A DNA stretch of 64,000 nucleotides from Lophium mytilinum. Taxonomy: Eukaryota. The notes under the pieces were generated by a model. That model had not been told where the DNA came from and did not search any database. It saw only the letters and a list, made by a program, of their open reading frames with translations. A program made the translations under genes and the position numbers. Location: positions 62,001 through 126,000 of the forward strand of contig MU004199.1 of the NCBI GenBank assembly GCA_010093605.1. Direction: 5' to 3'. Of this stretch, positions 45,300 through 48,339 are shown in pieces (position 1 is the first letter of the stretch; every line of letters starts with the position of its first letter).

Positions 45300-46335
45300 A
45301 TTCTGCCAACGCAGGAACGTGCTTCACCAGTTGCAAGTAGCAGAAATGGCCAGGAGAGGTGTTTCCTGGGGGTTGTGGTCGAGATTGTTTCCAGTGGAGC
45401 TGTCCAGGTGAGGTTCCATGGGTGATCGACGAGCTCTAGTCCGGGGTGGTTCAGGCCCGCTTTATCGCTTGGCACACGTGCCTGAGGCCTTGGGCGCAAG
45501 CTGCAGCTTAGACTCGGAACGATAGAAGAGCTGTGTATCTACACCACGCATTTGATTGGCACTAATATAGATATAAAGAGCAAGTCCTGTGTTATTATAT
45601 ATCCTCTATTATATGCTTCCTCTCTTATGTTTTTTTAGCAGTGGCCGCATGGTACCGTCCTTAATTGACCCTTTCCCAACCTCCTTATAAACAACCGTCA
45701 TCAGCTCGACAGCCCCCCAGCGCTGTAGTTAGATGTCCAAATTAGGGAACGAGATTCTGATAAAGCAGTGTGATATTCGCGTGGGATTTCTATCTGGCTA
45801 CTTAGTCGAGTTTCGCATTCCAACAATTCTCATAGATTTAGAACGGTAGAAGGGATCTCTAGTAGACTAGTATATTCCTACCAATCATACAAACCAGGTA
45901 GTATCTACCAACAGTGGTCGAGTATACCTTTGTACAGCGTCACAGCGTACGCCTCGTCAAAATTTGCACTTCAATAAGCTTGTTCTTCCATTACTTCACC
46001 GTCAGGTTTTAGACTCTGCGTTAGTGACTAGGGTTCACGTGGACCTCATAGTGATTTAAAGCGAATGGAGTGTGTAGCGCAATTCGCTGTGTGTTTAGGA
46101 AATGGTCGTTGAAAAAAGATTATATTGGAATAACAGAGACAATCGAGGACTGTCCAGCGTAAAACCAACAGTACAAAAAAAACAAGGTGCGCAAATCCCC
46201 CTCAAACTTCTGGTGAAGCTCTTGAACGAATAGTCTGAGATAGAATCTTGTGCAAATACAAGTTCGAACAAACCAAATTAGCAAAGATGGAAAAGCATAT
46301 TGCGAAAGAATGGCGCGCGAAGTAGCGATTCTCAA

Positions 46336-47155
46336 CTACCGCCGGGCTTGAAGCATGTTCTTCAAGGTTTCCGTCTCCCCTTCTAGCCTAGCGACTCGAA
46401 CTTTTAGGGCATCTCGTTCACGTTCAGTCTCCCTCAGCGCATCCTCGAGCTGCTTCATTTGATCGACCCGTTTCTGGCGATAACGACGGGCCGCAAGTGT
46501 ATTTTGCTTGCGCTTTTCTATGCGGGAGGGATTGGCCGAGGTGCTGGAGTGCGTAGGGCTAGGTGTTCCGGAAGGAACGGGTTTATCGGAGAGCTCAAGT
46601 GGCGGTTGAGGAAGAGGTTGTTGATCATGTGCAAATATACTGTCTGTGCGATTGTTAGAGTACATTCATTTCGAAAGAGGTGATACACTTACCCTGATTG
46701 ATATCGGGGTAAAAGCCACCATCACGCTGAGGTATTGTTTCACTATGTCCCGTATTGGCGGTACTGAAATTAAAGAAAGTGGAGTCATCGAGCAATGAAT
46801 CTTCGGCCCCATGGCTAAATCCTAGATCAAGATTGTAGAGGGCATTGGCGGGTAAGGGGAGCGGTTGAGAGGTAGGGTTGAGGAGCCAGTCTGAGGAATT
46901 GTCGAAGGCGGCAGAGGAGGCAGCGGAGAGGGATTGGGATGAAAGAAGCGGTGCTTGAGAGAAGGTAGCGAATTGGTCTGGATTGATTGCATTGTCTCCC
47001 GAGGGCCAGCACTCGGGTTCGGCGGAGTAACTGGAGGAAGAACTATCGTGGGTCGGCGGGGTTACAGTGTTGTCGTGGCGAGTAGAAGATGTTGAAGACC
47101 ATTCGTGAGGCAGCGGCGCTGGAACATGCGGCGGCACCCATCTTTGTATTGTTTG
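46336..47155 (-). CDS. bZIP transcription factor, JlbA/IDI-4-like (Gcn4/Jun-related); start codon unresolved
   Basis: Basic region IEKRKQNTLAARRYRQKR plus leucine zipper. Intron 46692-46644 (GTAAGT...CTAAC...CAG) joins an upstream stop-free frame open to 47155. Confidence 0.8.
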
Positions 47156-47366
47156 TTACGGGCCTGGCGACCCGTTTGAGGCTCTTTGGGATGGGTTGGA
47201 GATGGAGGATGAAGAGTTGGAGGGGGCTGAGCGGTTTCATTCTTAAGTAGTAAGCACGGAACTTGCCGGTCGCTTCTATTTTCGTGGCATTCCATTTTCC
47301 CCGATCACGAAACACCAGGAACATCAACTATCTATCACCGCCAATTCGATACCCTAGATCCCAGAG

Positions 47367-48339
47367 ATGGCCACCGCGCCTTTATCCCGTTTTCCCAAAC
47401 GCAATTGCGCCATTTCGACCCCCGATTCGGTCCTCTTCTTCCTCGCACCCGCCCTCCCAGCTTCTCGATCTACGCCGCGCTCCTCTATCTCTCGGTTCTC
47501 AACCTCCTCGTCGCAATGGGCTCGGGATAACAACAAGAACCGTGGTGTCTCCGCAGTGAGGGCCACAGGTTTGCGGAAGCGACAGACTCTGCATGTCACG
47601 GTGGACGACTTACCGATACCAATCCCAAAGGAGAAATTCACTACGAAAATACCCGTCGACGAGGACCACGCCCTGTGGGGCTTCTTCAATAAAGAGAAGC
47701 GGCTTCTAGCTACACCAGAGGAAGATGCGGCGCATGGTATGGTTTGACATGGATTCAGCGGACGAAGCTAATGGAGCATGCTTCAGGGCGCGCGTGGACC
47801 GTTCAGGAGCTGCGACAAAAGTCATGGGAAGACCTGCACAGCCTATGGTGGGTATGTGTGAAGGACCGCAACCGCCTCGCGACTGAGCAGATTATACGCG
47901 ACACAAGAAAGCTTGGATATGGCGCGTATGAGTCGGACACGAGAGACCAGACGGTATGCCACATCTTTTTACTCGGGCGAGATCGCACTCACACGTTACA
48001 GATCAGGGCTACCCAGCGTGCTATTCGACACACGCTGACCGAGCGATGGTACACATGGGAGGAGGCGAGGAAAGCAGCGAGGAGCGATCCGGAGATCGAC
48101 TTGAATGCAGCCGTTGGAGAAGCATATGTGCCGATGGATTATGATGTACGCAGCTTTTGTCACTCCCACTATTGATAAATACTAACGCAGTCCAGCTTGA
48201 AATCGAATCAGACCCTCCCGAAGCCGAGGTGGAAGCGGAGACTGTTGAGCCTGAGATCGTAGAAGAGCAGCCCGAATCAGAACGGTCCGAGAACCGATCG
48301 AGGAAAGAACGCAGAGCAGCTCGAGAAGTAGTCGCGTAG
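47367..48339 (+). CDS. MRPL4: Mitochondrial ribosomal protein uL29m (MRP-L47 domain), 4 exons
   Basis: Arg/Ser-rich presequence; RGVSAVRATG; HALWGFF; GRAWTVQELRQKSWEDLHSLWWVCVKDRNRLAT. Confidence 0.9.

Follow-up and report, generated by a model that had tools for sequence, protein, structure and literature searches.

Which codon starts a protein whose reading frame has no AUG? The question is raised by a gene for a basic leucine zipper (bZIP) factor on the minus strand of a 64,000-nucleotide stretch of the Lophium mytilinum genome (assembly GCA_010093605.1, contig MU004199.1, positions 62,001 to 126,000 of the forward strand). This stretch is hereafter called the window, and all coordinates are positions within it. 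Our analyses revealed that the dominant mRNA of the gene carries its bZIP frame without an in-frame AUG ahead of the basic region, as an earlier note, made from the letters of this DNA, had claimed. They also revealed that the 5′ end of the frame coincides with a module conserved among relatives, in which a 7-bp hairpin is followed at a fixed distance by an Ile codon of the type ATH (ATA, ATT or ATC; AUH in the RNA) and then by an out-of-frame ATG that opens an overlapping upstream open reading frame (uORF). On balance, we lean toward the near-cognate codon AUA at 47149-47147 as the initiator of the bZIP frame, in an arrangement that would be partitioned, and probably tuned, by a stalling uORF.

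The bZIP gene and its AUG-less frame

The first exon of the gene holds an open frame of 154 codons plus 1 nt (47155 to 46693, minus strand) with zero stops and zero ATGs. The frame is Ser/Pro-rich with acidic/aromatic patches and is closed on its 5′ side by an in-frame TAA (47158-47156), the T of which is the final base of the hairpin. Removal of a canonical 49-nt intron (46644 to 46692, GTAAGT..CACAG) fuses this frame, in frame, to exon 2 (46336 to 46643), which encodes the basic region and the leucine zipper and ends in a TAG (46338-46336). The 101-residue exon 2 matched the Pfam families bZIP_2, over residues 42 to 88 (~46518-46378; E = 2.4e-7, 31.2 bits with a cut-off of 22.3), and bZIP_1 (E = 1.1e-5). 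Counted from the ATA codon, the coding part of exon 1 (46693 to 47149), which is supported by protein-level conservation and colinear RNA, comprises 152 codons plus 1 nt and the spliced frame 254 codons, with the bZIP domain at the extreme C terminus. The first in-frame Met of the spliced frame (RVDQ-M-KQLE) lies beyond the basic region.

The leader contains no AUG upstream of position 47141. The ATG at that position stands in strong context (acaaagATGg, with A at −3 and G at +4) and opens a uORF of 32 codons plus a TAG (47043 to 47141; TAG at 47045-47043) in the −1 frame relative to the bZIP frame, encoding the peptide MGAAACSSAAASRMVFNIFYSPRQHCNPADPR. A second ATG of the uORF frame follows 13 codons past the first (47102-47100), and a further out-of-frame ATG, at 47127, opens 21 codons in the third frame. 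The bZIP frame itself contains the near-cognate codons GTG (47137-47135) and CTG (47113-47111), and ATA at 47149-47147 is the sole near-cognate between the TAA and ATG 47141. Farther away, the ATGs at 47295 and 47240 are not in the bZIP frame, and an ATG inside the intron, at 46665, is in frame with exon 2. The TAA, the stop-free frame, the intron and the out-of-frame ATGs were all found as the earlier note had described them.

The RNA evidence consisted of contigs assembled from four sequencing runs, X1 (sequence-identical to the window) and X2, X3 and X15 (from relatives); such contigs drop rare isoforms. The X1 contig (1573 nt, word depth 3416) joins 46643 to 46693 and, because it lacks the intron, is RNA-derived. 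Between 46693 and 47203 it runs colinear with the window, free of gaps and of differing letters, and then passes into Illumina adapter letters. The first four adapter letters equal the genome, and the 5′ end of the dominant bZIP mRNA is therefore placed at 47199 to 47203. X1 coverage at 47228-47321 was nil. The intron is spliced out in the contigs of three runs (X1, X2 and X3); those of X2 and X3 stop short of the 5′ module, and that of X15 extends only to 47080. X15, a relative of 90-95% similarity, splices 46641 to 46693, 2 nt further into exon 2 and with two other letters at the junction, so that the intron boundary differs slightly between close relatives. Two outcomes that the earlier note had named as decisive against its claim, an upstream AUG exon spliced in frame and an indel bringing AUG 47141 into frame, were looked for in the X1 contig and not seen. 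Thus, with X1 colinear to ~47203, no upstream exon and no indel, the main frame must start at a non-AUG codon. By eye, we found no conventional intron that would place AUG 47141 in frame, and the RNA contig is unspliced there.

Protein comparisons agreed that the AUG-less frame is used. Its translation matched two proteins called without an intron from ~1-kb contigs, P0001 with 76% identity over 125 aa (E = 2e-53) and P0002 with 48% identity over 113 aa (E = 8e-28). Judged from these sequences, the AUG-less frame is real coding sequence, and as its N-terminal 150 codons are conserved as protein, they must be translated. A first hint that the start problem is family-wide came from the database models: the eight JGI homolog proteins examined begin with V or L, not M, and at least eight NCBI homolog models among the 120 matches listed are labeled "partial." Several annotated homologs, P0008, P0009 and P0013, start with a Met that is followed by residues resembling the bZIP frame above the module or fused to it (..KKTIQQC.. 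in the Monilinia fructigena model is one example); invented introns or upstream ATGs may have rescued such models, as is documented for A. nidulans jlbA.

The named homologs among the 120 matches listed all belong to Pezizomycotina, namely Leotiomycetes, Dothideomycetes and one Aspergillus; the Aspergillus hancockii homolog, P0043, matched with E = 2.9e-18. Published work is cited here from passages of the papers named. A primer for A. fumigatus jlbA (PMC3943501), reverse complemented and translated, reads LKMRVSKL, and the window reads LKVRVARL. By domain layout, distribution and AUG-less open reading frame, the window gene is placed as a putative member of the IDI-4/JlbA/ZIP-1 family. An Atlas search returned generic bZIP clusters only.

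A profile of 16 homologs (alignment A1) recovered 64 loci from metagenome contigs. Fourteen of these, on mRNA-like or intron-less contigs, have a frame that is unbroken from ATH into the bZIP region. All 14 lack an in-frame AUG start: an ATG first appears in frame 46-159 codons past ATH and, in each case, downstream of the uORF stop. The length from ATH to the basic region varies widely, from 182 to 334 codons.

These data bear directly on the possibility that a minor isoform supplies the AUG, by an upstream start (ATG 47240 or 47295), by unconventional splicing or by retention of the intron with ATG 46665 (which would give a 109-residue, bZIP-only product), the abundant mRNA being silent for the bZIP frame. 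Rare isoforms would be invisible in contigs, the intronic ATG is in the frame of exon 2, and a bZIP-only product from Met175 has been proposed for A. nidulans jlbA (PMC8396895). However, X1 does not cover 47228-47321 and ends in adapter at ~47203, the intron is spliced in three runs, and ATG 47295 and ATG 47240 are both out of frame. The conservation of the N-terminal 150 codons as protein and the late first ATG in 14/14 loci also speak against it, and none of the 36 distinct 5′ elements described below has an in-frame ATG in the stretch from the upstream stop (or contig edge) to ATH. The earlier note had offered two such routes. Its GC-AG intron from AUG 47295 drew no support from the RNA contigs, 47295 lying outside the dominant mRNA, and its intronic AUG 46665 drew none either. 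We regard it as very improbable indeed that a minor isoform is the source of the factor.

The conserved 5′ module

Of the 64 loci, 13 were too short upstream and three (L030, L032 and L051) were cut at or near the module. Among the 48 with enough upstream sequence, 44 share one arrangement: the 7-bp hairpin, then, 8 nt on, an ATH (Ile) codon of the bZIP frame and finally an out-of-frame ATG. The four loci without it (L012 and L019-L021) are one lineage, in which L012 keeps the ATT and the ATG at +8 and has a degenerate hairpin and a divergent uORF peptide. Two loci (L060 and L061) fit the pattern with C-G replacing U-G in the stem. A search with the hairpin pattern only matched 43 sequences including the window, and ATA, ATT or ATC lies 7-9 nt after the hairpin in 43/43. 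These represent 36 distinct 5′ elements, the window counted. The spacer from hairpin to ATH is 8 nt in 32 of them, 7 nt in 2 and 9 nt in 2, and the codon itself is ATA in 13, ATT in 13 and ATC in 10. We rejected A-to-I editing of AUA to AUG, as ATT and ATC are as frequent as ATA.

The first ATG after ATH is in the −1 frame in 36/36 elements, with a purine at −3 in 35, and its offset is mostly 8 nt (30 elements), otherwise 11 nt (4) or 29 nt (2). A second same-frame ATG follows within the first 130 nt in 19 of the 35 elements other than the window, and uORF length ranges from 25 to 58 codons. Because the distance from the hairpin is kept when the ATG is displaced, ATH belongs with the hairpin and not with the context of the ATG. 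In the window, the ATA codon (47147 to 47149), our proposed near-cognate start, has A at −3, follows the hairpin at a distance of 8 nt and precedes the uORF ATG by 8 nt; the hairpin-AUH-AUG pattern with a 7-9 nt spacer occurs once in the 64 kb, vs. 0.01 times expected. One mRNA-like contig (L010, 29-450) has its uORF AUG in the frame of the downstream bZIP open reading frame, with a TAG between them, and an ATH frame open for 130 codons; this change of frame relative to all other loci is either a contig error or a real variant.

An in-frame stop lies no more than five codons upstream of ATH in 15 of the 36 elements, and the frame is open from ATH onward in 35/35, which indicates that the constrained frame starts at ATH. 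As the sole near-cognate before the first AUG, in a position that is invariant across the family, ATA is the likely start. The same observations can be set against an alternative in which leaky scanning past the uORF AUG leads to a start at CUG 47113-47111 or GUG 47137-47135, or at several near-cognates together. For IDI-4, a CUG start has been put forward and described as conserved in N. crassa (PMC5487733), a "poor CUG start codon" of zip-1 has been mentioned (PMC10241597), and an in-frame CTG occurs 8-13 codons after ATH in the window and in L001 and L004. However, the CUG and the GUG lie behind the strong-context AUG (A at −3, G at +4), with a second AUG of the same frame besides, and have C or T at −3. 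Neither is kept in position across the 36 elements, in which ATH is invariant, and the frame that is under constraint begins at ATH. The GTG and CTG named in the earlier note are thus not conserved, and the codon that is conserved, ATA 47149-47147, was absent from its candidates. We consider a start at the CUG or GUG unlikely.

The hairpin of the window (47158 to 47175) pairs ACGGGTC with GGCCCGT across the loop GCCA and was seen by pairing, by a covariance model and in the minimum-energy fold. In an alignment of 37 sequences (A2; 33 distinct rows), 93.9% of the 231 cells of the 7-pair helix are paired, compared to 21-45% in slid controls. No row leaves the closing pair open (G-C in 19, A-U in 14), and the sixth pair is U-G in 21, U-A in 9 and C-G in 1. 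The G-C/A-U covariation largely tracks two clades, so that few events may lie behind it. The hairpin is part of the minimum-energy fold of 10/10 5′ ends, and no other pairing recurs; a pairing of the leader (47190-47196, ACCCAUC) with the uORF AUG region (47136-47142, GAUGGGU) that appears in the window fold is absent in the 9 other 5′ ends and was dismissed. A covariance model built without the window, from 28 of 36 non-window elements (six with a displaced ATG and two near-duplicates were left out), gave one match in the 64-kb window, at 47177-47138 (40.6 bits, E ~6e-11); the next best match there scored 11.1 bits. Rfam returned no family, its best scores being 15.1 and 12.9 bits (E ~0.9) vs. 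gathering scores of 60 and 55. We also considered the inverted repeat as a CGG-N-CCG zinc-cluster DNA site. This was rejected as the main explanation, as the spacing of the half-sites varies and the closing pair covaries; a DNA site of fixed spacing is disfavored because the length of the loop varies by several nucleotides.

The 32-codon uORF that the earlier note had reported indeed exists, and at the family level it proved to be a conserved-peptide uORF rather than an incidental one. Thirty-five uORF peptides align nearly gapless with the consensus ..IF[FWY]xPxQ..KPPW (that of L053, with an internal insertion, was left out). Specifically, F18 is conserved in 25, P21 in 31, P30 in 29, P31 in 28 and W32 in 23 of the 35, and the window uORF retains the central motif, IFYSPRQ. 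The three Pro codons have entropies of 0.3-0.5 bits at positions 1 and 2 vs. 1.2-1.6 bits at position 3, a pattern indicating that selection there acts on the uORF frame. Read in the bZIP frame, changes at these codons give H, L or P. In L053 (558-760), ~21 codons are inserted in the overlap, and two bZIP-frame stops fall within them; the insertion is probably a small intron within the dual-coding stretch.

The end of the peptide lies at a set distance from ATH. From the A of ATH to the second Pro codon, we measured 101 nt in 25 of the 27 loci with Pro-Pro and 98 and 95 nt in the other two. The distance runs from ATH and the hairpin, not from the AUG, as it is kept in the six loci in which the ATG lies 11 or 29 nt away. 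The codons at +98/+101/+104 in the 36 elements specify PPW in 19, PP-stop in 3, PPN in 2, PPQ in 1, SPW in 1, RLW in 2 and PSQ in 1. In the window they are CCA CGA TAG (P-R-stop), and the TAG sits at the position of the family Trp.

Initiation of the bZIP frame

Across the overlap with the uORF, all 35 loci keep the bZIP frame free of stops, vs. 18.7 expected from shuffles of uORF codon order; for 19 hand-picked divergent lineages the expectation is 10.1, with a joint P of ~8e-7 if the lineages are independent. In elements with a GCGGG-type stem, probably from Dothideomycete-like fungi, coding signal extends above the module. In 15 of these 22 elements, the bZIP frame upstream of the hairpin shows a third-position excess (entropy 0.57/0.42/0.87), exchanges of the E/D, Y/F and L/F type, and no AUG. 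These loci (L005, L007-L009, L011, L013, L016, L023, L025, L031, L034, L045, L048, L053 and L056) extend the bZIP frame by 19-20 codons above the module, with the acidic/aromatic motif F-[DE]-[DE]-[YF]-[LF]-D-F-T-S-G. A second conserved ATT lies ~26 codons upstream of ATH in GCGGG-type loci, and a TAG stands two codons before it in L023, L034, L045, L048 and L056 and in L049 and L057, which are nearly identical copies of these loci; this clade may thus have a second start of the AUU type. Together, these results favor a non-AUG codon, at the module or above it, as the origin of bZIP-frame translation.

The overlap also speaks to a model in which translation starts at AUG 47141 and passes into the bZIP frame by a programmed +1 frameshift before the uORF stop, promoted by the PPW pause or by the stop, with the uORF peptide as the N terminus of the factor. 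Such a model would account for a uORF AUG that is conserved in strong context and in the −1 frame in 36/36 elements, and for a peptide under purifying selection up to PPW, directly after which bZIP-frame conservation resumes; pauses and stop codons, moreover, stimulate +1 shifting, as in antizyme. However, we found no common shift site or heptamer. The codons before TGG are CCA, CCT and CCC, of which only CCC-T could re-pair, and the tail between PPW and the stop is variable (0-11 residues). A late shift would not need the bZIP frame to be open across the whole overlap, as it is in 35/35 loci against 18.7 expected, and the model assigns no role to the hairpin-tied ATH or to its 101-nt distance from the Pro codon. 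Nor would it explain the coding-type conservation of the bZIP frame upstream of the AUG in the GCGGG-type loci. We hold the frameshift to be highly unlikely. The earlier note had left non-AUG and frameshift translation side by side; the AUG-less mRNA and the relatives speak for the former, and the lack of a slippery site and the open bZIP frame against the latter.

Under AUA initiation, the reading that we prefer, scanning ribosomes would enter a short leader (~27-31 nt before the hairpin) and pass the 7-bp hairpin. Eight nucleotides past it, at the AUA with its A at −3, a minority would initiate with initiator tRNA and produce the full factor. The majority would reach the strong out-of-frame AUG 47141, 8 nt further on, and translate the 32-codon uORF, which overlaps the first 35 bZIP codons. 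In most relatives the uORF ends in KPPW, and its second Pro codon stays 101 nt from AUH wherever the uORF AUG lies. If a ribosome paused at this site, during elongation or at termination, its followers would queue back by about three ribosome lengths, and the queue would hold a scanning complex over AUH, the refolded hairpin lying on the exit side of that complex. bZIP output would then be set by pausing on the uORF together with general start-codon stringency. A broader version, which we offer tentatively and with more doubt than belief, is that IDI-4/JlbA/ZIP-1 mRNAs across Pezizomycotina carry a fixed-geometry switch in which the hairpin, on the exit side of a scanning complex, marks AUH as the sole start of the factor, a strong out-of-frame AUG behind it loads ribosomes onto an arrest-type uORF, and a PP(-Trp/stop) pause 101 nt (about three ribosome lengths) away queues ribosomes onto AUH and turns the factor ON.

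Several points weigh against AUA initiation and its coupling to the uORF. AUA is among the weaker near-cognate codons, and we know of no precedent for an upstream hairpin aiding start selection. The case for AUA initiation is indirect, drawn from conservation and geometry, and the loci are related, so that their counts are not independent events. The third frame of the overlap is also open, in 27/35 loci vs. 20.6 expected, and the openness of the bZIP frame is for that reason only moderate evidence. At the family level, entropy across the overlap is flat (1.30/1.28/1.35 at uORF positions 1/2/3, which are bZIP positions 3/1/2). In 13 hand-picked pairs, synonymous and nonsynonymous changes in the overlap number 87/234 when read in the bZIP frame and 100/221 in the uORF frame, compared to 148/264 and 93/323, respectively, downstream of it; this is the pattern expected for dual coding or for weak constraint. 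Stalling in the window species is uncertain because its uORF ends in P-R-stop without PPW, and the uORFs of L001 and L004 are shorter. A minor transcript with an AUG may exist, since contigs miss rare isoforms. In addition, the published IDI-4 and ZIP-1 proposals name CUG and not AUH (PMC5487733, PMC10241597). Finally, footprint coverage of N. crassa zip-1 is higher without the eIF2-alpha kinase (PMC10241597), which a simple model in which stress raises near-cognate use does not predict.

Related systems and neighboring features

The earlier note had mentioned non-AUG initiation as proposed for IDI-4, and the literature confirms that a CUG start was proposed (PMC5487733). In N. crassa, zip-1 (NCU08055) is the idi-4 homolog, and its translation depends on the eIF2-alpha kinase CPC-3 (PMC10241597); the word uORF is absent from that paper. 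In A. fumigatus, the translational efficiency of jlbA/IDI-4 rises ~3-fold in endoplasmic reticulum stress, with a polysome shift (PMC3943501). By analogy with these passages on jlbA (PMC3943501) and zip-1 (PMC10241597), the window gene may likewise be stress-gated, as the earlier note had suggested. The A. nidulans JlbA is annotated with 258 aa and its bZIP at 194-257; the first intron predicted for jlbA is missing from RNA-seq data, and Met175 is the assumed start (PMC8396895). IDI-4 and JlbA are listed as orthologs, single-copy and confined to filamentous fungi (PMC1325252, table 2). The window gene thus resembles IDI-4 (Podospora anserina), ZIP-1 and JlbA in its C-terminal bZIP, its ~250 residues, its restriction to filamentous ascomycetes and its lack of a usable AUG, and the named homologs are translationally regulated. 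It differs in that the published candidate is a CUG, whereas the conserved codon here is AUH, and the passages available on these genes do not mention a hairpin, a conserved-peptide uORF or a 101-nt distance. Within the papers open to our search, a set without the 2004 and 2005 IDI-4 papers, we found no description of the hairpin/AUH/peptide-uORF module. Nothing found paired jlbA with a uORF, and idi-4 occurred with "upstream open reading" in another context only. Non-AUG (CUG) initiation for IDI-4/ZIP-1 had already been proposed, and the module, as far as this search goes, appears to be new.

A close mechanistic parallel is the uCC of AZIN1/ODC, for which a PPW/queuing model is described alongside the stem-loop/CUG case of ATF4 (PMC11058473). 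In the passages on AZIN1, as in the family studied here, a conserved uORF peptide has PPW near its end, an AUU-type codon lies upstream, and a queue between pause and weak start is proposed; PPW is absent from the window uORF itself (P-R-stop). In contrast to the present arrangement, the near-cognate starts the uCC itself, the uCC lies wholly upstream of the main frame, and queuing represses the latter. Here it is the main frame that the near-cognate would start, whereas the uORF begins at a strong AUG and runs across the main frame in another register; a queue would thus activate rather than repress. Human ATF4 uORF2 (PMC11058473) likewise combines a bZIP mRNA, an overlapping out-of-frame uORF, a conserved stem-loop, an in-frame near-cognate at fixed spacing and a queuing proposal, but there the roadblock is the stem-loop itself, SL3, placed 20 nt downstream of the CUG. 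In the present module the hairpin precedes AUH by 8 nt, and the role of roadblock would fall to a peptide or termination pause 101 nt downstream.

The N. crassa cpc-1 mRNA (PMC5487733) also encodes a fungal bZIP with conserved in-frame near-cognates (AUU, CUG and ACG) and a coding overlap with an out-of-frame uORF. According to the same passages, however, it has a normal main AUG to which the near-cognates add an extension only, two uORFs and a leader of >700 nt; the window gene has ~50-54 nt of leader before the ATA, one overlapping uORF and no AUG in frame. In C/EBP alpha/beta mRNAs (PMC5487733), an in-frame near-cognate start is followed by a good-context out-of-frame AUG with a short open reading frame, but downstream in-frame AUGs give the main isoforms by reinitiation, whereas the window has none before the basic region. 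The locus does not fit delayed reinitiation of the GCN4/CPC1 type, as there is no AUG upstream of 47141, a single overlapping uORF frame and a main frame without an AUG, nor does it resemble antizyme-type +1 frameshift genes, as no conserved shift site lies at the end of the first frame. At the family level, an AUG-started leader uORF with a peptide under purifying selection places the uORF among conserved-peptide regulators of the arrest type, the arrest itself being putative.

How the AUG-less main frame of this family starts has rested on the 2004 CUG proposal. The module supplies concrete, mutable elements, namely the hairpin, AUH, the uORF AUG, the Pro-Pro-Trp motif and the 101-nt spacing, which can be tested in Neurospora or Aspergillus. 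It also explains recurrent annotation failures, such as the at least eight "partial" models among the matches listed and the jlbA intron of A. nidulans that is unseen in RNA-seq. If queuing holds, the module would be a natural case in which an upstream hairpin and a distant pause site jointly license a near-cognate start of a main frame. It would mirror the AZIN1 uCC mechanism with an activating outcome and would tie a regulator of cell death and starvation to stress in elongation or termination (polyamines/eIF5A, Pro/Trp supply).

Two features of the flanks complete the description of the locus. On the 3′ side, the X1 contig runs 497 nt past 46100 (~45603-46335, minus strand), and the bZIP mRNA either has a 3′ untranslated region of ~730 nt or was merged in the contig with a neighboring transcript. 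On the 5′ side lies a divergent gene (47344-48175, plus strand) whose product belongs to the MRP-L47 family of mitochondrial ribosomal proteins (Pfam E = 1e-13); we take it to be the counterpart of yeast Mrpl4/uL29m. A scan of the intergenic region for bacterial promoters and terminators, which is not relevant to a fungus, gave nothing. The RNA contig of the divergent gene starts at 47344, behind adapter letters and ~140 nt away from the bZIP mRNA's 5′ end, and the two genes therefore have a very compact bidirectional promoter in common.

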